A DNA stretch of 64,000 nt from Eledone cirrhosa (Eukaryota): positions 373,674,001-373,738,000 of the forward strand of contig OZ024740.1 in the NCBI GenBank assembly GCA_964016885.1. Reading direction: 5' to 3'. Below the pieces are notes generated by a model. That model saw only the letters and a program-made list of their open reading frames with translations. It was not told the origin of the DNA and did no database searches. Shown here piece after piece: positions 15 to 55,146 of this stretch. Position 1 is the stretch's first letter. Each line of letters begins with the position of its first letter. The position numbers and the translations under genes were made by a program.

Positions 15-502
15 GTTTATCTGTCTGTGTGCAGTCTGTCAGTCTAATATACACAGAGTTATGAACGGAGTAAACAGGGACCTTTCTTTAAATTGACGGA
101 CATCTTTTATATTTATTATTGTGTCATTTTTTATACAGTATGTAAATGTGTCAGTGTAGAGACATGTGTGTGTGTGATGTGTGTGGAAATAAGAGGGGAA
201 GGAAAGCAATAACTATTAACATGAGTGCGTGTGCGTGTGCATGTATATGCACGTATGATTATGTGTGTGTGCGTGCGTGCAGCGTTCCACAGAAAGTAAA
301 AACTATCAACATGTGTGAGTGTGTGTGTGTGTAAGTTTGCATGCGTGTGCGCGTGTCCATGCCTGTATGTGTGTGGCGATCCAGTTTATCTGTCTGTGTG
401 CCTGTCTATCGGTCTAACATACATATAGTTTTGAAGGGAGTAAATAAGGACATTTTTTTTACATTGACGGACATCTTTTATATTTATTATTGTGTCATTT
501 TT
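15..502 (+). repeat. Direct repeat (~120-bp unit, ~370-bp period) in Helitron 5' region
   Basis: gtttatctgtctgtgtg...attgacggacatcttttatatttattattgtgtcattttt at ~15-132 and ~384-502. Confidence 0.85.
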
Positions 503-508
503 TGACAA

Positions 509-3500
509 TTGCTTGAAATGAATACTGATAATAAAAGCAATTCGATTTTATCAAACAGTGAACTACAGCGGCGACGGCGTGCAGCCAGCAATGAAGAAAA
601 ACGGGCCGAACAGCGCCATCGGAACGCCGAACTTCAGAATGAAGAGGAGCTGGCTGAACACGCAATGAAACACTGGAGCAAAGCAGCGACGGCGTGCTGC
701 GATGGTTGAAGACAAACTGGCTGAGCATCATCAGCAAATGGCCAGAATTCAGCAGCAACCGCGTGCTGTGATGGATGAAGAAGAGCTGGCTGAACAGCGC
801 CAGCGTAATACAGAAGTTCAGAGAATGTGTCGCCAAAGTGCTCCTCATTCCAGTAAAGAGGCCAGAAGGCGAATGAATGATATTAAAAATGGATCATGGC
901 AACCGTGTCATTTTCGGATTGGTGGACGAGCAGAGTTTCCACATTGTGGAGCATTGCTTTGGAGGCACGAAAAGACGTGTACGACAATGTGTGGTAATAA
1001 ACGAGCAGTTCAACTAGAACCCCTTCGAATGCCGGATAATGAGGAGTCACCGGAGTTTTAAATACTTATTATGTGGGATGATCAAGGAGACTGGGGTAGA
1101 TTACTGCGCAAATATTCGCGGCAACTTAACAATTTATTAGCTTTAGCATCGCAGAGAGTTAGTGAGATGTTTGAGAGTGGAGCATGGCAACCGAATGTAG
1201 TCATTCAAGGCCGTTTGTATCATTGTATCGGTAATTTAGAAGTTACCCCAGGAGAAATTTACGTTAACGATCTAGATTATAGTGAATCGGAGGAGGATAT
1301 CAGCATCGGTTGGATGAAGTTGCCGGGAAATATGACTGAACTTGAACGGCGAAGGTTAAGTGATTTGATCCGTGATTTGCAATCATGGCTTAGACAGTGT
1401 AATCCTTATGTTATGGATTTCATGTTGGTGGCTGAACTGCAAAATGTTCAGCAGCAAACATTGGTGATTAAAGCTGACACAGTGCCAAGGAATCAACACG
1501 AACGCGATATAATGCCCCTGAACGATTTCGTGAAATTGCTGTGTTGATGGACGATAAGCCTGGATCGAGAGATATCGTCCTCAATTGCAGAGATGGTGGT
1601 CTAAACACTATCAATGAGTCAAATAGGACATACGATCCATTGCATTATCTTCATTTATCCCCAAAAGGTGAAAATGGATGGAACATGTCTGCTCATTTAG
1701 ATGATCATGAGAATTAGCATCAACAGTGAGGTGGCAATAGACACAATAATTCGATTCGCAACTTTTGCACGTTCCATTTGAACGAGAGGAATCAACAGAG
1801 AAATGCGCTATTTCAAGCCAGCAGATTGTTCCAGGAATACTGTTGTATGGCATTCGCAAAGATCGAAAATCAAAGGCTAAATTGTATAATAATATACAGG
1901 ATGCGATAACAGCCGATGATGCCAATTAAAAGCAAATTGGTCGAAGCATTATTTTGTCATTGGCGGCCCAAGATATATGAACATTCGCTATCAGGATCCA
2001 ATGTCTATTGTCAGAAATTTGGAAAGCCAGATTTGGTAATAACGGTTACATGCAATCCTGAATGGACTGATATTAAGGATGCACTTTTACCAGGACAAAA
2101 GCCAAAGGACCGTCCTGATATTGTGGCAAGTGTATTCAAAGGATATCTGAAAAAGATAATGGATGATGTGGAAAAAGAGGGAATCTTTTGAGGTATAGTT
2201 GCTTTTACATACGTAATTGAATTCCAAAAAGATGTTTGCCACATGCACATTTGCTGATCATTTTACATAGAGATTGTAAATTAAGATATGTTGAGGATGT
2301 CGACAGCATTGTGTGTGCTGAACTGCCTCAAAATGAGGCACTACGCAACTTGGTGGCAAAGTCAATGGTGCACAACCAATGCGGAGTGGCAAATCGGAAA
2401 GCGCCTTGCATTAAAAATGACCAATGCAGTAAGCACTTTCCGAAATCTTTTGTCACGAACACTTCCTGGTACGATTGGGATGCTGATCCCTCATACAGAA
2501 GACGGTTGCCTGCAGATGGTGGTTTGGTCGAAACTGTAAACGGTCGACAGGTTAGAAATCAATGGGTTGTGCCATACAATCCATATTTGATTATGAAATA
2601 TCGTTGTCATATTAATGTGTAAATTTGAAGCTCAGTTAAAGCTTGCAAATATCTATTCAAATATGTTTACAAAGGTCACTATCGGGCAATGATCAATGTC
2701 ACAAATGAGGAAGCGAACCAAGGAGATGTAGTTTGAAGGTTCTAGGATGTTCGCTCGATTGGATCTAGCTAGCTTGCTGGAGATTGTTCGATTTTGTTCT
2801 CAATTAAACGCAAACCCAGCGTTCAGAAACTGACGGTCCACTTAGAGAATAGCCAAATGGTCTGTTTTCAGGACACTAGAAGAGGTGTCGAAATAATTGC
2901 TGAATCACCACCTCCTAAGACGGAATTGACTGAGTGGTTTAAGCATAATAGGGAACATGCTTTGAACCCGGATCAAAAGCAACTCTACAGGCGATTTCCC
3001 TTCGCACTATACGTTGGATAAGAAGGGAAAGACATGGAATGGTAGAAAACAAAAGTTGAGATTCATGACTATTGGACGGGTTTGTAATGTCCATCCAGCA
3101 TCTGGTGATGTGTTTTATCTCCTAATTATGTTACATAAGGATTTTTTGAGAGGGACCCAGAGCTTCGCTGATTTGAAAACAAGCAATGGCGTGGAATATG
3201 AAACATACCAGGCTGTATGTCAGCATCTGGGACTCCTTCAGGATGACGCTGAATGGAATAACGCCGTGGAAGCTGCATGAACAACACATATGCCAGCTCA
3301 AATAAGGCAGTTGTTTGTCACGATTCTAGGATTCTGCAATCCTGTCGATCCAAGAGAGTTATTTGAACGCCATTGGGGAATTATAGCTGATGATTTTATG
3401 CATCATCTTCAGATCGATGATGGAAATTTGATGAAAGCTATTGTTTTGCTCAATATTGAGCAACAGCTTGAAGTTCATTTCAAATGTTTAAAATATTTCA

Positions 3501-5018
3501 ATTTGCCAATTCCTGATGAAGATATACGGCAACGTGTCTTAGCATTGAAAAGGAGATTGCAGCTTAGACGGTTGCCACTCGATCGGAGGGAACTCTTCCA
3601 GTTTGAACCACTGGAACATCAACGTATTTTGGATGAACGTATGCAAATGTTGACCCAATCTCAGAGAGAATTGGTCGATGGCGTTCTCCATTCGAGTTCC
3701 ACTAATGAGAAAATTTGTGCTTTCATAGATGCTCCATGAGGCACCGGAAAAACATTCTGTTTCAACACTATGTTATGGCAGTCAGAGCTCAGAGGAAGAT
3801 TGCTCTCCCTGTGGCCACCAGTGGGATTGCTGGCACTTTGCTGAGTGGTGGAAGGTTCTTCCACTCATGCTTCAAGGCTCCATTGGCTCCGGATGAGTTG
3901 AGTGTATGTAACATTACAGGACAGAGTGAACTCGAGAGCCTTATACGCAATATGTCTCTGATTATTTGAGACGAGGCTCCAATGGCACACAGATATTTGC
4001 TGAAGGCATTGGACATAATTTTTAGAGATATCTGCGGTAGTGACCTGCCATTCGGTGGTAAGACTGTCGTTCTCGGTGGCGATTTCAGACAGGTGCTACC
4101 AATTGTTAGGAATAAGAGCGCAAATTGTGATGCATATCTGAAAATGTCCCCGTTGTGGCGCCATTTCAGAGTTTTGCGATTACACGATAATATGCGACTT
4201 CGTATATTCGGGTAAAACGAAGAGGCTGAGACATACTTCCGATGGTTGATGCAGTTGGGAAACGATGAATAGCCACACGTTGGTGATAATCAGACTGTAA
4301 GAATCCCAGACCATTTGGTCATGTCACTGGACTGCCAAGCATTGATTGACTGGGTGTTCCCTAATTTGAATGATTTTTGGCAGAATATCTCCTGGATATC
4401 GGAACGCCTTATTCTAACTCATACGAATGCAACGGTTGATGAAATAAATGCACAAGTAGCCGGAATGTTTCCTGGAGAGGAATGGTTGACCGTCAGTGCG
4501 GATGTAATGGAGCCTAATCAGCAGAACAATATGGATGTTCCGACAAGTATCTGAATTCACTTCAAATACCCGGATTTCCCCCACTTTTTTTGAGGTTGAA
4601 AAAGGGTATGCCGATTATATTGCTTAGAAATGTCAATCATAAAATGGGTTTTTGCAATGGTACCAGATTGATTGTTGAGAGATTGATTAACGGAAGAGGT
4701 TTAGAAGCTGAACTCCCAGACAGAGAGGAATCGGTTCTCATTCCGAGGATCATGCTGAGACCAAGTGAAGTTCTGCTGCCATTCATTTGGCAAAGGAGAC
4801 AGTTTCCCCTCAATTTCGCCTTCTCCATGACTGTCAACAAGGCACAGGGACAGACTTTAAAGCGAGTCCGTGTCTACTTGAATGATGCAGCAGTCAGCCA
4901 TGGGCAACTGTATGTTACTGCATCTCGTGTGTGCAATCCGTATGGTATAACATTTGCAATGGATACCACTAACAGAGGAACAACCCTGAATATTGTCTAT
5001 AATGAAGCTTTGAACTGA
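509..5018 (+). pseudogene. Helitron Rep/helicase (HUH endonuclease + PIF1-family helicase), many stops and frameshifts
   Basis: Rep motifs LVITVTCNPEW, IEFQK/PHAHLL, KYLFKYVYKG. Helicase motifs [77 protein letters not shown]. Confidence 0.95.
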
Positions 5019-12999: not shown

Positions 13000-14392
13000 T
13001 ATTGTTATACTTGGGGAGGATAATATGTTTGTGATAATATTGCCAGAATTAATAACAGAACACACTCACGGTTGGGTTGGTTTTCGCTTCTGTATCTTTT
13101 ATATCAGTTAATTCATTCGGTCCTCAATATTTACCATTGACTGACCAACGGTCAAAAATACAGATATAATATAGATATAAAAACATATATATAGTCTAAC
13201 AAAGTTCTTTCGGTGCACATCTGCAACATTGTCAGCGGTGCTATTATTTTCCTCCTGTTGTATTGTATATTTACGCCATCCATCTTTATTTAATGTTTAT
13301 TTATTTATTTATTTTTGCCTTCCACTCTGCGCATGATTTGTGTGTGTGTATAGTGTTTGGTGTGTGTTCGCGTTTGGGTGACTGTGTTTTGGTTATTATA
13401 TTCTATCTTAGTTTACTAGTATGTGATTATATTTGTTTGTTTATATTGTACTTGTGTATATATATATTTATTTATTTATATTTCTCTTAGATCAATAATG
13501 TTTGTTTGGGTGTTGTTTTTATTCCATTCATTATTTTCTGTTTAGCTTTGGCCTTCTAATTTCTATTCACTCGCCTCTCTGATTTGCCTATCTGCTGGGT
13601 CATTTCAATGTTTAGATGTTATTTTAATTTCTATGTTGTCTATGTTACCGTCATGTTGTTGTCTGGCGTGTTCGTATAGTACTGGACCGTTTTTCATCCT
13701 TTTAGTTCCCCCTGTGTTGGTCTATCCTTTCACCTATGCTGCGAGTTGCCTCGCCTATGTATGTTGTTGTCATGTATTCTGCAAGTACCTTCTGTACATC
13801 TTATGCTATAGACTACGTTACTAGTTTTACAGTTCATCCGGGGGTTTGCATTACATATAATACATTTCCTATTAGTACAGTGGGATTTTCTTAAAAGGGT
13901 ATGTTTTGCTGATCAGGCATTTTATGGTAGTTCCTGGCTTTTCTACCAACTTAATCTTTAAGTGGGTCTTTCTCACGGCCTTTCTACACTGGTTAGCTAA
14001 TTTCCCTCCAGGGGTAGCATCCACGAATATGACACTCTCGTATCTCTGGTTGTTGCCCCATGAGGTGAACTTCCCTATCTTATGTTTAGTCCCATTTAAG
14101 CTATTCAATGAGTTTCTCCTGTATAATGGGCAAATTCCTTTCATTTCCAGTTCTATAAGAGTCTTATACTTCTCTGTTGTTCCTTCGTATATTCTGATTA
14201 TGTCTCTTTGGTTGTAGCCAGAGAATTGCATGCGGTTGATGAAGTGTTGGATGTGTCTTTCCATTTCTGTTGGGTCGCACATGCGGGACACGTTCTTCAT
14301 CACTCGTACCATGTCTGCGATCAGAATATTAAACTTAGAACTACTGGAAATTGCTGAGTTTTTGAGTATCAGGTATTTGGAGGCCATGGGTT
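13000..14392 (-). mobile_element. 5'-truncated PLE (RT thumb, GIY-YIG, 3' UTR); same family as 47507-49667
   Basis: ORF 13872-14387 is nearly identical to the C-terminal half of ORF 47760-48896. YIGEATR motif present; shared terminus ccccaagtataacaata. Confidence 0.92.
13197..13240 (-). ncRNA. Degenerate minimal type I hammerhead motif
   Basis: caccg-CUGACAA-u-guugca gaug ugcacc-GAAA-gaac-UU-uguua; G8 mutated; homologous to 49420. Confidence 0.6.
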
Positions 14393-14404
14393 TATATATA
14401 TATG

Positions 14405-35082: not shown

Positions 35083-35140
<58 letters not shown>

Positions 35141-35144
<4 letters not shown>

Positions 35145-35700
35145 AAATAATAAATTTGAAGACTAAAATCCAAAGAGGGCTCGATAAGGATAAATATATA
35201 TGAAATATATAAGAACCGTAGAGCAAACAATTATTAAAATAACAGATTAAAGTTTAAGCAAAGAATCGCTGCTTTCACCCTTAATGGGATCTTCTGAAAC
35301 TAATAAAATCAATCTGTAAACGCAGAAGTGTATATTTCAAAAATCGTTGCAACCGGAGGAAGACAGGAAGATGATACTTTGGTTCGTGGATACGTTCCCT
35401 GGCAAAGAACGGGAAAAAACGAATATAATACGTCATTAATTGGAGCGGTGAAAAACGATTACACGCAAAGACAGAACCACGTTTATGGTATGAAAGAAGT
35501 CGTAGACTAATGTTCTTTTAAGTGGTTCATAGAGACGTTCTCTGGCAATGAACGGGAAAATATGTCATGTCTTCCTCTGGTTTGAACGTTGTTTGAAATA
35601 TCCACTTCTGCGTTTACAGATTGACTTTGTTAGTTTTAGAAGATCCCGTTGAGGGTGAAAGCATCGACTCTTTGCTTAAACATTAATATTTTATTTTAAT
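35141..35700. mobile_element. Inverted pair of Naiad-family 3' ends (family of 47436-52404)
   Basis: 35141-35565 matches the left arm of the large element; 35565-35700 is a short inverted copy. Confidence 0.85.
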
Positions 35701-35720
35701 TTAAAAAATATATATATATA

Positions 35721-35910
35721 TATTGTTATACTTTGGGAGGCTCATGTTGCCAATAAAAACAGACACGTCTGCTGGGTTTCACTTCAATTTATTATAAATT
35801 TCCGTTTGTTTGATTTATTAGCAACATGACCCTCGCAAAGTATAACAATAACTGTTTCAATACTCATTTTCAGGTGAAAAATCTCACAAAACAAATTCAG
35901 AAACGAATTC
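35721..35910. mobile_element. Miniature inverted pair of PLE termini (family of 34298)
   Basis: attgttatactttgggagg...catgttgc versus gcaacatgaccctcgcaaagtataacaata. Confidence 0.75.
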
Positions 35911-35922
35911 ATATATATATAT

Positions 35923-35959
<37 letters not shown>

Positions 35960-35966
<7 letters not shown>

Positions 35967-36248
35967 TCGTTTTTTCCCATTCTTTGCCAGCGAACGTTTC
36001 CACGAACCAAAGTATCGTCTTCCTGTCTTCCTCCGGTTGCAACGTTTTTTGAAATATCCAGTTCTGCGTTTACAGATTGACTTTGTTAGTTTCAGAAGAT
36101 CCCGTTAAGGGTGAAAGCAGCGATTCTTTGCTTAAACTTTAATCTGTTATTTTAATAAATATTTGCTCTACGGTTCTTATATATTTGATATATATTTATC
36201 CTTATCGAGCCCTCTTTGGATTTTAGTCTTCAAATTTATTATTATTAC

Positions 36249-36249
<1 letters not shown>
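35960..36249 (+). mobile_element. Naiad-family 3' end
   Basis: Near-identical to 52115-52404. Confidence 0.85.
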
Positions 36250-36287
<38 letters not shown>

Positions 36288-38533: not shown

Positions 38534-39011
38534 GAAAAGTATTGAAATCATTGTAGCAAGAAGCCAACAGTATTCCATATATATAAGTGACTATAGCGTC
38601 AAAATGGAAAAATAGTTAACGTAAGAAGTGGGAAAATAATTCAAACTCAATTCAAAAAGAATCAGGATATAGATTCATCCACATAATTTGGTGAAATCCA
38701 GGGAAAATGAATAGAGCCTTAACTCAGATTAAAATACAGTTTAAAATACTCATCCATCAACTTGGAAAAACTACAAATGCTCTGTATAGTCTTAAAAAAT
38801 ACTATTTCACGAAACTTTCAGTGGGGATGGTCACGGTTGGAATCGATCATCAGCAGAGCCCAAAAATACGATAACCAAAGTACCACTGTTTATAATATGC
38901 CAAAAAGGGAATTTAAAAGCAGGCTAGTTCAACATCATGCGTAATGAAGATAAACGCACATGTAGAGACATGGCTGGTGACGTCAGAATGAGACGAATGT
39001 CTATTTATATG

Positions 39012-39819: not shown

Positions 39820-40108
39820 GTAGGGGTATGTGTGTGTGTGTATAAATGGAAAAAGGCACACGTAAATTACAAAGCAATCTGCACCACTTATGTTTCATTG
39901 TGTTGTTTTTCAACTGGTAAATTACTATTTAACTCTTGTCCTGCATCTGTCACGGGGTACGCAAATAATCACCTCCTACACCATATATCAGTAGACCCCG
40001 ATAAAGATTGAAAACAGTGATTCTTGCTTAAAGCTTAAAATGTACTAATAATAAATATTTACTGTACGGGTTTGTATACATACATATGTATGTATGGGTA
40101 TATATATA

Positions 40109-47143: not shown

Positions 47144-47196
<53 letters not shown>

Positions 47197-47197
<1 letters not shown>

Positions 47198-47415
47198 GCA
47201 ATAATAATAAATGTGAAGACTAAAATCCGAAGAGGGCCCGACAAGGATAATATATATATAAAAATATATAAAACAAAAGAGCAACTATTTATTACAATAA
47301 CAAGTTAAAGTTTAAGCAAAGAATCACTACTTTCACCATTAAGGGGGTCTTCAGAATATCTCGTTAAGGGCGAAGCAGCGATTATTTGCTTAAACATTAA
47401 TCTATTATTTCAATA
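47197..47415. mobile_element. Small inverted pair of Naiad-family termini folded at the HHR-like motif
   Basis: Matches 35141-35295, then inverts at ~47350. Confidence 0.75.
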
Positions 47416-47511
47416 CACACACAGATATATATATAGTAATAATAATAATTTTGAAGACTAAAATCCAAAGAGGGCTCGATAGGGATAAATATATATCAAA
47501 TATATATCAGC

Positions 47512-49181
47512 AGGGATGTGGTGTCACTGTACCCATCCATTAACATTGATTTTGCTAAGAAAAGATGTGTGGAGATGATCATTGAGAGTGAGGTGGAGTT
47601 CTGCGACGTCGACACAGACGAACTGGGCCTCCTACTTAGACTTACCTACGACACTGACTACCTAGACAGCCACGACCTTAGATGTTTCTGCCCTAGTAGA
47701 CCTATAAGAGGTAGACCACCCACCATAACCTCAATGGCAAAAAAGACTCCCATGGGAAGGTGGATTGGGTGGACCAAAGCTATACGGACCCCCCAAATGA
47801 TCAGGTAAGACAAATGGTCGCACATGCAATAGGGGCTAGTATCAAAACTACCCTAAAGGGCCACATATTTAAGTTCAACGAGAAGATCTACACCCAAAAT
47901 GAGGGAGCAGCCATCGGCGTCAGCATAGCTGGTGATGTTGCCAACCTTTTTATGGTATGGTGGGAAAGGAGACTTAAATATCTCGTTAATGACAGCTCCA
48001 TAGACCTCATCATGTACTCTCGTTATGTAGACGATATCAATATAGTTATAATAACACCCCCACTAGAAAGCACTAACAAGTTTGATTTAGAACGTAGCAC
48101 CATGGAAAGCATCCAGCAGATAGCTAATTCCATACACCAGAGTATAACTGTACCTATCGACTTCCCTTCCAAACACCCTAACAATAGACTACCTGTATTA
48201 GACACAGAACTCTGGATTAACACTATAGACGAGAGAGCCCAAATTCTCCACTCACACTATGCTAAACCCATGGCCTCCAAATACTTGATACTCAAAAACT
48301 CAGCAATGTCCAGTAGTGCTAAGTTTAATATTCTGGTAGCAGATTTGGTACGAGTGATGAAGAATGTGTCCCGCTTGTGCGACCCAACAGAAATGGAAAG
48401 ACACATCCAACACTTCATCAACCGCATGCAGTTCTCTGGCTACAACCACAGAAACAGAGTCCGAGTATACGAAGGAGCCATGGAAAAGTATACGACCCTC
48501 ATAGAACTGGACATGAAAGGAATTTGCCCATCATACAGGAGCAAATCATGGAATAGCTTAGATAGGGCTAGATATAAGATAGGGAAAGCCACCTCATGGT
48601 ACGACAACCAGAGATACCAGAGTGTCATGTTTGTGGACGCTACCCCTGGAGGGAAATTAGCTAACCAGTGTAGAAAGGCCCTGAGAAAGACCCACTTAAA
48701 AATAAAGGTGGTAGAAAAGCCAGGAACCACCATAAAATCCCTGTTCAGCAAAATCTACCCTTTTAAGAAAACCCACTGTACCAATAGGAAATGTATCATA
48801 TGTAAGGTGAACCTCCGGATAAACTGTAAATCTAGAAACGTAGTCTATAGTATAAGATGTACAGAGGGTACTTGCAGAAACATGACAACAACATAGATAG
48901 GTGAGGCAGCTCGTAGCATAGGTGAAAGGATAGACCAACACTGGGGGGAACTAAAAGAACGAAAAAACGGGTCAGTACTATACGAACATGCTAGACAACA
49001 ACATGACGGTAACATAGACAACATAGAAATTAGTATAATATCTAAACATAGAAATGACCCAGCAGATAGGCAAATCAGAGAGGCCAGTGAAATAGAAATT
49101 AGAAGACCAAGGCTAGACAGAAAGAATGAATGGAATAACAACAACACCCAAACAAACAACACTGATCTAAGAGAAGTATAA
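47512..49181 (+). pseudogene. PLE reverse transcriptase + GIY-YIG endonuclease (frameshift near 47790, stop at YIG tyrosine)
   Basis: DVVSLYPSI; YTQNEGAAIGVSIAGDVANLFM; YSRYVDD; LPVLD; NCKSRNVVYSIRC...TT*IGEAARSIGERIDQH. Confidence 0.93.
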
Positions 49182-49419
49182 CTAAGTAAATAAAATAAAA
49201 TAAATGAATAAATAAATACATACACAAGCAAAAACACAACAAGCACATACACACACACTACTCACCCATCACACAGCAAATAAAACACTATACACACACG
49301 CAAACGCATGCGCAAAGAAGACAAAATAAAATAAACAAACAAGCAAATAAATAAATAAATATATAGACATTCTGAATAAAAATGGCGTAGACATACAATA
49401 CAACAGGAGGAAGATATAA

Positions 49420-49463
49420 CACCACTGACGATGTTGCAGGTGTGCAACGAAAGATTTATGATA
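49420..49463 (+). ncRNA. Minimal type I hammerhead ribozyme motif
   Basis: cacca-CUGACGA-u-guugca ggug ugcaac-GAAA-gauu-UA-ugaua; intact core. Confidence 0.78.
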
Positions 49464-49752
49464 AACTATATATATGTGTTTGTGTCTATATTGTATCATT
49501 ATTATTTTTGACCGTCGGTCAGTCAATGGCAACATTGAGGACCGAGTAAGTTAGATTACCGATATAAAAGACACAGAAGCGAGAAGCGAAATCCAACCAA
49601 ACAGTGAGTGTGTTCTGTTATTAAATCTGGCAATATTACACAAATATGACCCACCCCAAGTATAACAATAAATATATATCAAATATATAAGAACCGTAGA
49701 GCAAATAGTTAAGGGTGAAAACAGTAATAAATAAATAAATAAATATATATAT

Positions 49753-49826
<74 letters not shown>

Positions 49827-50864
49827 TAAAATAACAGATTAAAGTTTAAGCAAAGAATCGCTGCTTTCACCTTTAACGGGATCTTCTGAAACTAATAAAG
49901 TCAATCTGTAAACGCAGAAGTGGATATTTCAAAAAACGTTGCAACCGGAGTAAGACAGGAAGACGATACTTTGGTTCATTGAAACGTTCCCTGGCAAAGA
50001 ACGGGAAAAAAACGAATATAATACGTCATTAATAGGAGCGGTGAAAAACAATTACGCACAAAGACAGCAGCACGTTTATGGTATAAAAGAGATCGTAGAC
50101 TAATGTTATCTTAGGTGGTGCATAGAGACGTTATCTGGCAATGAACGAAAAAAAAACGAAGATAATACGTCATATGTGGAACGTGGAAAACAATTGCACG
50201 CAAAGAAAAAAACACGTAAATGGTATAGCAGAAGTCGTAGACTAAAATTCTAACTAGGAGACCGGATGAATCTCCGCTTCAGAGTTAAGAACAAAGTAAA
50301 TAAATACAATACAGAAGTAATAGAAATTAAATAAATACATACACGCATACAAATACGTAAAACACAAGCATACACGAAAACACTTACCATAGGTATACAA
50401 AACCACGCACATATAAATATGTGTGTGTGTATGCGTGTATACAAATAAATAAATAATTAAATAAACGTATATAAATAAATAAATACGTATATAACAGGTG
50501 CACACACATACCTACATGTAAATACACAAATGTTCGGAGACGTATGTCAATCAAAACATGAAGTACACATAAACACACACCCTACATACGTACGAACGTG
50601 CATACCCACACAGACGCAAACCTCCCGTATACACATAACCACACCATATGTACCAGAATATATAAAATATTACGCCATAACAAATACAATCAAATATACG
50701 TACGAGAAGGTATACGTACCTTCACAAAACATACAGGTTATATATACTTACCTATGCAAATAAGTAATGGTATAAACAAAACATATACTTAGCTACCACA
50801 TCAAGACGTAAAATATCCATGTATAGATCGTACTATCCGTTAGGGTATAACGTGGGACTGTAAT

Positions 50865-51330
50865 ACAGGAAAGTTTTGTGCAATTTATGTTTACAAGCCG
50901 AATTTGCCTCAGATTATTTGTTTAAGATGTGGTCTGTGGCGTAGAGTATTTCCAGGGCCTCAGCCGCGCAGAGGTCACATGGTCTTTTATTTCCGTTATA
51001 CGATCTACCCCTAGCTAGGATATTCCAGTGTAACTTATATTAGGTGTGGTTGTCTTTTAGACTCCAGATATAAGCTGAAAGTGACGTCATATTCCTTCTT
51101 AGAGGGTAACGAAAACAATGGGTATGCATTAAAAGACGCTGCTTGAATATATTGGCAGTTAACCTTATGTAGGCCCTACGGGACGTGGGTATTTCAACCG
51201 TACATTTGTAGACAATGTTACGAGAGAGGCATTTCCCGGATAGGGGGCAATTAACCCGATTCCTACAATTACAGTTAGTACTAACTACAGGGTTGCAAGT
51301 GTTCCTACGGCTAGGTAGTTTAGCTAAATT
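50865..51330 (-). pseudogene. Naiad-type GIY-YIG endonuclease remnant (absent from ORF track)
   Basis: CNCRNRVNCPLSGKCLSRNIVYKCTVE...AYIRLTANIFKQRL...TSLSAYIWSLKD...CDLCAAE...CKH; CxCx5Cx5C linker; two TAA stops. Confidence 0.88.
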
Positions 51331-52443
51331 TGAAGCTGTGATGTTATGTGCAATGTTATGTTTTGTTTATACCATTACTTATTTGCATAGGAAAATATAT
51401 ATAACCTGTATGTTTTGTGAAGGTACGTATACATTCTCGTACGTATATTTGATTGTATATGTTATGGCGTATAATTTTATATATCCTGGTACATAGGGTT
51501 TGGTTATGTGTATCCGGGAGTTTTGCGTCTGTGTGAGTATGCAGGTTCGTACGTATGTAGGGTGTGTGTTTATGTGTACTTCATGTTTTGGTTGACTTAC
51601 GTCTCCGAACATTTGTGTATTTATATGTAGGTATGTGTGTGCGCTTGCTATATACTTATTTATTTATTTATATACGTTTATTTAATTATTTATTTATTTG
51701 TATACACGCATACACACACATATTTATATGTGCGTGGTTTTGTATACCTATGGTAAGTGTTTTCGCGTATGCTTGTGTTGTACGTATTTGTATGCGTGTA
51801 TGTATTTATTTAATTTCTATTATTTCTGTTTTGTATTTATTTACTTTGTTCTTAACTCTGAAGCGGAAATTCATTCGGTGTCCTAGTTAGAATTTTAGTC
51901 TACGACTTCTGCTATACCGTTTAAGTGGTTTTGTCTTTGCGTGCAATTGTTCTCCACGTTCCAGATATGACGTATTATCTTCGTTTTTTTCGTTCATTGC
52001 AAGAGAACGTCTCTATGAACTATCCAAGGGAACATTAGTCTACGACCTCTTTTATACTATAAACGTGGTTCTCTCTTCGCGCGTAATTGTTTTTCACCGC
52101 TCCTATTAATGACGTATTATATTCGTTTTTTCCCGTTCTTTGCCAGTGAACGTTTCCACGAACCAAAGTATCGTCTTCCTGTCTTCCTCTGGTTGCAACG
52201 TTTTTTGAAATATCCACTTCTGCGTTTACAGATTGACTTTGTTAGTTTCAGAAGATCCCGTTAAGGGTGAAAGCAGTGATTCTTTGCTTAAACTTTAATC
52301 TGTTATTTTAATAAATATTTGCTCTACGGTTCTTATATATTTGATATATATTTATCCTTATCGAGCCGTCTTTGGATTTAATCTTCCAATTTATTATTAT
52401 TACTATATATATATATATATATGTGTGTGTGTATGTATGTATG

Positions 52444-53849: not shown

Positions 53850-54945
53850 AGAGTCTAGCTAACTCTTTAACGTGCGGCTGAATTTTCGTAATATGTAGCC
53901 AGCGATCTCCACTAGCTGACTCTTTGACGTGAGGCTGAATATTCGTAAGATGTGGCCAGTGATCACCACGTGTAATTAGATTGTATTGGTTGCAAGACTT
54001 ACTGTGCAGTCTAGAAACAGCACCAAACCTCCTCTCAACTAACTATGAGCTTGGAAAAGGCAGAGAAAATCTCTGATCCTCTGCTTGTAGGAGTGGAAAT
54101 CGACGCTGAATTTCCTCTTGCATCCAAAAAAGGGGTTCACCTATTTCGGGTAATCTAATTTTGATCATGTCATCTAGTTGAAGTTCAATGAATACTTCTT
54201 GAAATTGAATGTCCAAATCGTTGACGGTAGCTATGAAAGGATCTGCTATCCACATTGGGATGACCATCAGCAAAAGTTCAACAAACGGTTCTCTCATGTT
54301 TTCTTGTAGTGCACGGAGGTGGGCGGTATAAATTTGGAGTTGGTCATCGCTTACAATGTTTTGAACATTGGCGACACTAGGAATATTATAGAATTCCCAT
54401 CAACAAAGATTCCTTTCGATTTACATTCAATTTGGCCAGGAATGTATTCACAGCATCCCTTGCTTCAAGCAAAGTGATCTTCTTTCCCTGCAAAGCCACA
54501 ATGACGCTATTGCATTTGTCAAAGATGTTAGAGAGTTAGGCGCAGTCTTGCTTCACATCAAGGGGTTTCTTGTACAGTTCTATGTTGCGTCCTCGAAGAA
54601 ACTCAATGATAGAGTCGAACAGTTTAAAGAAGTGAATAAGGCACTTGCCCTTTGAAAGCCACCTCACTTGAGTATGAAGGAGCAACTTGACGAATTCTTC
54701 GCACAGATGCGGAAAATTTCGTTTATTGAGGAAATGGAGTTTGATAAAATTGATGACATCAATGGACACCTGCAAGGACTTGCTCAGCGGCTCACTGAGT
54801 TTCTTCGCAGCCAAGTGTTGTCGATGAATGACACAATGAACAGCAAATACAGATAGATTTTCTCTCTTCAGAAGAGTGAAGAAACCCTTATGTTGGCCGA
54901 CCATTGCTCTTGTGTCGTCCGTAGCACATGATACAATGTGCTTGT
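53850..54945 (-). pseudogene. Buster/Charlie-like hAT transposase remnant (C-terminal half)
   Basis: VHCVIHRQHLAAK, LLLHTQVRWLSKGKCL, WIADPF, LPFPSS*LVERGF; ~57-bp tandem duplication at ~53854-53969. Confidence 0.9.
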
Positions 54946-54954
54946 GTGTTATAG

Positions 54955-55146
54955 GTGGTCCTAGATGCGTGTATTACCTGCTGATGTGTTGTATGTGGTC
55001 CTAGATATGTGTATTACCTGCTTATATGTTTTATGTTGTCCTAGATGTGTGTATTATCTGATTATGTGTTGTATGTGGTCCTAGATGTGTGTACTTCATG
55101 ATTATGTGTGTATGTGGTCCTAGATGTGTGTGCTACCCGCTTCTGT
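54955..55146. repeat. 40-bp minisatellite, ~5 units
   Basis: gtggtcctagatgtgtgtattacctgcttatgtgttgtat consensus. Confidence 0.9.

Follow-up and report, generated by a model that had tools for sequence, protein, structure and literature searches.

The window analyzed here, a 64,000-nucleotide stretch of the Eledone cirrhosa genome (contig OZ024740.1, positions 373,674,001 to 373,738,000), holds a large palindrome with a protein-coding spacer, which raises the question of what kind of element the spacer belongs to and how the sequence flanking it came to be present twice in opposite orientations. An earlier note on this DNA had read the spacer as a GIY-YIG endonuclease of the Naiad clade of Penelope-like elements (PLEs). 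Here, we provide evidence that the palindrome is probably a dead, 5'-truncated PLE of the Hydra clade whose inverted arm likely arose through a second priming on the element RNA at integration, a reading to which we assign a probability of roughly 0.88. Such a palindrome is an expected by-product of Penelope-like integration and its layout has already been published; the one detail that we did not find in literature searches is a hammerhead-like core with A at position 4.

Architecture of the palindrome

Self-comparison identified inverted arms at 49819-50785 and 51357-52318 that are 93.7% identical over 967 columns, with a 571-nt spacer between them; in 962 aligned columns the arms differ by 56 substitutions (27 transitions and 29 transversions). 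The palindrome is thus real as earlier noted, but the length of ~1.05 kb given for its arms was too long, as the paired arms measure 967 nt and the extra ~90 nt is a tail found on the right arm only. The left arm (49819..50785, minus strand), which we identify as the native 3' UTR of a Hydra-clade element, has no tail and ends in (TA)n. The right arm (51357..52318, plus strand) is an inverted copy of the same 3' UTR that starts ~50 nt past the stop codon, meets the truncated body with a 2-nt overlap (read by eye) and carries the one-sided 94-nt tail (52314..52406, plus strand), followed by (TA)n/(TG)n. In a full-length copy, the same 94 nt form the 5' leader after the pLTR. The earlier span of 47436-52404 does contain this palindrome, but merges it with a probably separate stub and a nested PLE: the order along the span is a tail stub split by the nested PLE, a TA tract and then the palindrome.

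The spacer contains a 5'-truncated ORF remnant (50833..51358, minus strand) with a CxCx5C linker and a GIY-YIG endonuclease (EN) but no reverse transcriptase (RT). All motifs previously noted on its minus strand could be read, namely CNCRNRVNCPLSGKC (51273), IVY (51216), AYI (51174), CDLC (50979) and CKH (50895), and the YIG motif has changed to YIR. Premature TAA stops at 51042-51040 and 50916-50914 precede the native TAG at 50835-50833, and it is because of these stops and the missing start that the domain was absent from the ORF track. With no RT and two stops, this copy is dead.

A young and abundant family with intact members

A search of the 3.0-Gb genome with the spacer yielded 1,005 candidates, of which 40 were scored and 30 fetched, including the palindrome locus itself; these 30 loci are the best spacer matches and not a random sample. 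Apart from the window's own, the scored copies were 95-96% identical over the spacer. In 25 of the 29 other loci the 3' UTR arm directly follows the endonuclease region in sense orientation (matches shorter than 140 nt were not shown in this comparison), which upholds the view of the left arm as a native long 3' UTR, and the remaining four have lost an internal stretch, so that the stop region abuts the final ~280 nt of the UTR. At most of the 30 loci the end without a tail leads into (TA)n, and at one into (CT)n.

Nine loci were extended, and one of them (L031) has an intact 710-aa ORF at 1886-4015, with a partial direct repeat and an inverted copy ahead of it, in an element of ~3.3 kb from tail start to UTR end. 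Full-length sisters comprise the 94-nt tail, a single 710-aa ORF encoding a telomerase-like RT, the CxCx5C linker and the GIY-YIG domain, and a 3' UTR of ~1 kb, and are located in (TA)n. Open frames of at least 700 aa hold 5 of the 150 best endonuclease matches. The family is abundant and fairly young, and intact ORFs remain.

The spacer encodes a Penelope-like GIY-YIG endonuclease

Sequence databases offered little help with the protein: neither Pfam nor NCBIfam gave a significant match for the intact ORF or the spacer peptide, and single and profile sequence searches of the PDB gave no match. An AlphaFold model of the 710-aa ORF (pLDDT 91.8) was more informative. Residues 1-477 matched TERT best (Foldseek E 1.1e-9), and by Z score telomerase RT (16.8) and a group II intron RT (16.7) came out level. 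Foldseek with the endonuclease alone returned weak rows only (best E 0.58), which was resolved by a wide structural search with the C-terminal 150 residues folded alone, where I-TevI was best (Z 9.4, rmsd 2.4 over 89 residues), followed among 48,161 chains by T4 EndoII (7.7), UvrC (6.1) and a restriction nuclease (5.7). The resemblance in fold between the intact sister domain and I-TevI identifies the spacer as a PLE GIY-YIG domain, in agreement with the earlier reading. Across 75 aligned rows, the GIY-YIG residues Y586, Y599, G601, R610, H614, E669 and N682 are invariant, as are C565, C567 and C573 of the linker, which lies at 51273 in the window. The 70 top database relatives share 35-46% identity over the RT-EN part, and none of the best 120 exceeds 58%, a value reached over 61% of that part.

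A Hydra-clade rather than a Naiad element

The CxCx5C linker had been taken as the mark of the Naiad clade, but Craig et al. (2021, PMC8557442) publish it as a mark of the Hydra clade, whose members have a C-terminal endonuclease, RWK and DKT motifs, the CxCX5C linker, and CxxC and CxH motifs around E and N, and have lost CCHH. Naiads are described in the same paper as having an N-terminal endonuclease with CX2-5CxxC and CCHH, CxC between EN and RT, DKA, and ORFs of ~1,000 aa in the two cases for which a size is given, and in its supplement octopus Naiad proteins begin with a CxxxxCxxC endonuclease. There are real likenesses between the palindrome's element and Naiads, which are also PLEs with a GIY-YIG domain, a preference for (TA)n, inverted structures and high copy number; the (TA)n target, the inverted 5' copy and the lack of a canonical hammerhead core all fit the Naiads published in PMC8557442. 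Set against these, the endonuclease of the sister copies comes last, followed by the stop and the UTR, with the RT upstream; the sister ORF has RWR at 37 and SDKT at 114 and not DKA, and is 710 aa long rather than the ~1,000 aa of the two sized Naiad ORFs; its start is not the CxxxxCxxC endonuclease of the octopus Naiads. CCHH is absent, with two Cys between the two Tyr motifs in only one of 75 aligned rows. Among the best 120 of 687 homologs, which carry no clade label, the linker lies downstream of YxDD in 110 and upstream of it in none. The domain order, with EN downstream of RT, refutes the Naiad reading, to which we give next to no probability.

Hydra-type motifs recur throughout the homologs: RW[KR] is present in 56 and DK[TS] in 60 of 61 long homologs, and in CDLC..E..LNK..CKH the CxxC and CxH that flank E and N occur in 118 and 115, respectively, of the best 120 of 687. 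From these motifs and by-eye comparison with labelled PLEs, rather than from a tree, we assign the element to the Hydra clade. It appears to be a new family within this known clade, separate from Hydra-1_Obim because the two proteins, though colinear by eye, have only 19 of the first 44 residues in common (hand count).

Origin of the inverted arm

Adjacent inverted copies are not peculiar to this locus. PLEs commonly show an adjacent, inverted, 5'-truncated copy together with a one-sided tail (Craig et al., PMC8557442, Fig. 2 legend), and Penelope-13_HM has a 5'-attached inverted copy. In our data, 16 of the 30 loci have an adjacent 5' inverted piece, with varied truncation points; inversion is optional, since the other 14 have none. 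Within the first 100 listed motif matches, 16 of 21 close pairs (<5 kb) point outward, where ~1.6 close pairs would be expected by chance. Both termini were resolved in 12 of the 30 loci, and each of these 12 has a single tailed end, which is the inverted arm in seven and the body in five. Inverted pieces, outward pairs and one-sided tails together make it most likely that the right arm is an inverted copy made at integration, as the earlier note had suggested.

There are 12 differences from the family majority that both arms have in common. Nine of these are subfamily marks and three are near-private variants, found in 0, 0 and 1 of the 23 other copies, and this argues that both arms derive from one source. 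The near-private variants are few, however, with two in low-complexity sequence, and gene conversion could be an alternative cause. Arm divergence (5.8%) is close to the median of 6.1% for random pairs among 23 sisters, which together with the common variants fits one source followed by neutral decay.

We propose that the element's enzyme nicked both strands of a TA tract, and that each nick would have primed reverse transcription at one of two start sites, with or without the tail. The two cDNAs would then have extended toward each other and stopped early, one inside the endonuclease gene and the other just past the stop codon, before being joined head to head via microhomology. With head-to-head joining of two early-stopped cDNAs, the spacer would be the part that was copied only once. 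We infer the priming steps from the work of Frangieh et al. (2024, PMC11167929) on PAc, a Poseidon element of Anolis. There, both target strands are cut and extended in vitro, the two start sites of reverse transcription delimit the tail, and mutating the hammerhead does not abolish insertion in vitro. Two-strand priming was thus demonstrated in vitro for a protein of the Poseidon clade and is applied here, by inference, to a Hydra element; PAc differs from it in clade and in its tail of 30-40 nt, which lies within the ORF start.

A simpler scheme would have the truncated first cDNA snap back on itself and copy part of its own 3' UTR. This would explain why the arms have subfamily and near-private variants in common, as well as the short junction overlaps and the frequent turning of small stubs at the self-complementary TTC-A-GAA within the hammerhead-like motif. 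Yet a tail that is missing from the body is hard to obtain on the other arm when the first cDNA serves as template, so that the one-sided tail fits two primings: in seven of the 12 resolved loci, the palindrome included, the 94-nt tail is on the inverted arm with none at the body end, and a snap-back could yield this arrangement only with a second priming, a return to the RNA or precise trimming of the first end. We consider snap-back improbable. Still less probable, in our view, are two independent back-to-back insertions, an assembly fold-back, or a functional hairpin maintained by conversion. Chance neighbours are conceivable in so dense a family (18,366 exact motif matches) that nests in (TA)n, but no TA tract lies at the inner junction and outward pairs outnumber inward ones by 16 to 1 in the first 100 listed motif matches, while an arm difference of 5.8%, similar to that of random sister pairs, fits neither an artefact nor homogenization. 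Second priming on the element RNA is the reading that we retain.

A hammerhead-like motif with A at position 4

Both arms carry a hammerhead-like motif, on the right at 52244..52294 (plus strand), where A at 52250 replaces the canonical U4, and on the left at 49843..49893 (minus strand), which has type I order and likewise A at core position 4, with one stem II base changed in this copy. The layout consists of stem I (5 bp), core CAGAAGA, stem II (3 bp), GAA and stem III (4-5 bp); other than position 4, the core bases and the type I layout are present, at the expected place near the 3' end. Exact 30-mer counts across the genome gave 18,366 matches with A at position 4, 72 with T and 109 with C or G, against 388 with a changed G12. 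With 18,366 A and only background-level T, the source elements must have carried A4, and we rejected a source subfamily with the canonical core because T is no more than background beside 109 C or G and 388 non-G12. Older subfamilies were also set aside as evidence for an old U4A, as searches for them mostly gave decayed stubs of the main family that are not independent. A few CT cores seen in these searches sit at fold-back axes.

A scan of the arms for canonical cores found none. With the E cutoff relaxed to 5, Rfam recognized neither hammerhead-like motif, and its only matches were miRNA-type noise driven by microsatellites. Contigs from four sequencing runs showed no other letter at 52250 at a 5% threshold, noting that contigs drop rare variants. 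In the minimum free energy (MFE) structure predicted for the 51-nt motif, stems II and III are present and stem I is missing (-4.8 kcal/mol for the hammerhead topology vs -8.5 kcal/mol for the MFE), so folding lends no support to stem I. A CTGAAGC hairpin in the upstream UTR was considered as a second hammerhead and dismissed, as GAAA is not in place (by eye).

U4 is part of the uridine turn of the hammerhead core, and changes there slow cleavage. A full-text literature search for U4A with hammerhead returned no paper, though a 2017 paper, reportedly on small PLE hammerhead variants, may have covered cores of this kind. In File S2 of PMC8557442, CTGA opens every one of the 26 Hydra rows (25 families). 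U3-A8 covariation has been reported (Cervera and de la Pena 2014, PMC4209133), and Perreault et al. (2011, PMC3088659) mention a viroid variant that carries U4C and is less active; 'U4A' does not occur in the passages of the latter paper that were consulted, nor did the portions consulted of PMC6155905 and bioRxiv 10.64898/2026.07.22.740005 contain anything on a U4A core. Either the U4A motif is a working natural hammerhead variant, perhaps protein-assisted, with a predicted self-cleavage that we regard as possible but doubtful, or the family might be a genome-scale demonstration that ribozyme cleavage is dispensable for PLE transposition in vivo.

Neighbouring stubs and a nested element

Several smaller pieces of the palindrome's family lie elsewhere in the window and match its 3' end at 78-100%. 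They comprise a head-to-head stub with a tail at one end (35139..35723), a single 3'-end stub with a tail in sense orientation (35959..36251, plus strand), and a short head-to-head stub with a tail at one end and its axis at A47353 in TTC-A-GAA (47187..47435), which is more decayed (78-86% to L031). The earlier suggestion that non-coding palindromes at 35141, 35960 and 47197 belong to a protein-coding element is borne out by these matches, except that the stub at 35960 is not palindromic alone; it pairs with the stub at 35141.

Immediately left of the palindrome, a probably separate short stub of the same family is split in two: its left half (47425..47506, minus strand) is tail, and its right half (49668..49740) is the remaining tail and a short reversed hammerhead fragment. 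Between the tail-like pieces (47433-47506 and 49662-49707) and the left arm lie (TA)n and the short reversed fragment, and the two pieces are themselves split by a nested 2.16-kb element of another PLE clade (47508..49670, plus strand), which is flanked by an exact 22-bp target-site duplication (47485..47506, plus strand, and 49668-49689). The nested element is unrelated to the palindrome's element by BLASTP (best E 0.84) and 97% identical over the query to its own sister copies. By motifs, we classify it as a Neptune-type PLE, with Neptune and Nematis left together: like these, it has a C-terminal endonuclease, a CX4CxxC linker, a Cys pair inside the GIY-YIG domain and a canonical minimal hammerhead core. 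This younger PLE would have inserted later into the adjacent stub of the palindrome's family.

Significance and comparison with known Penelope-like elements

These findings correct the clade label of the element from Naiad to Hydra, and offer for study an abundant, fairly young family with intact ORFs, in a clade for which we found no biochemistry in those parts of the PLE literature that we consulted. Its strictly one-sided tail allows the two-start-site model to be tested on genomic copies. The family would have spread to tens of thousands of copies with U4 changed to A while keeping the other core bases and the three stems, and this fixed U4A core bears on the question of what purpose the hammerheads of PLEs serve.

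The element resembles Hydra-clade PLEs such as Hydra-1_Obim, Hydra-1_Ajap and Penelope-13_HM in its single ORF with RT followed by GIY-YIG, in RW[KR], DKT, CxCX5C, the absence of CCHH and the CxxC and CxH around E and N, and in its (TA)n target, 5'-attached inverted copy and one-sided tail. It also shares their type I hammerhead layout near the 3' end, in which stem II is flanked on both sides by an additional base. It departs from the clade in its size of ~3.3 kb with a ~1-kb 3' UTR, where Hydra elements are 'generally' <3 kb with one entry of 3,045 bp (PMC8557442), in its tail of 94 nt where 30-40 bp is typical, in its very high copy number, and in its CAGAAGA core where all 26 rows (25 families) of Hydra elements start with CTGA.

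Variants and remnants of the Hydra family

Four other loci of the genome (L011, L012, L015, and L006) carry short-UTR variants of the Hydra family, the high-copy Penelope-like element (PLE) family, in which ~700 nt of the 3' UTR are missing. Because the breakpoint is almost identical in three of them (4099-4103 in the coordinates of L031, the full-length sister with an intact 710-aa ORF), this deletion variant appears to have been mobile. Within the window, the Hydra-family 3' UTR contains an old internal tandem duplication of ~130 nt (49972-50103 and 50116-50245, 78% identical), and an old remnant of the family's 3' end (77%) lies at 39988-40078. Short 3'-end copies of the family at window position 47353 and at L054, L079, and L080 turn at TTC-A-GAA, inside the hammerhead-like motif; there the opposite strand again reads CTGAAGA, the canonical core, but most of stem I is gone.

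Other repeats and hammerheads

On the minus strand at ~38780-38853, the window holds a predicted canonical type I hammerhead with a long stem II, which belongs to another repeat family and has two further copies in locus L093. The same locus (202-1693, minus strand) carries a divergent second Hydra-type family, with a CNCx5C linker and CNLC; canonical hammerhead cores, which may or may not belong to that family, lie downstream. Stop-to-stop frames at window 54043-54973 resemble decayed DNA-transposase fragments; the single frame searched, 54539-54973, had no significant Pfam match. Window segments 47508-49670 and 13000-14394 are two truncated copies of one high-copy PLE, Neptune-type by its motifs, for which a genome search returned 3,217 candidates. 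In the sister copy at L052 a frame stays open for at least 1,058 aa and includes a long Asn-rich insert; the element's predicted hammerhead core is canonical.
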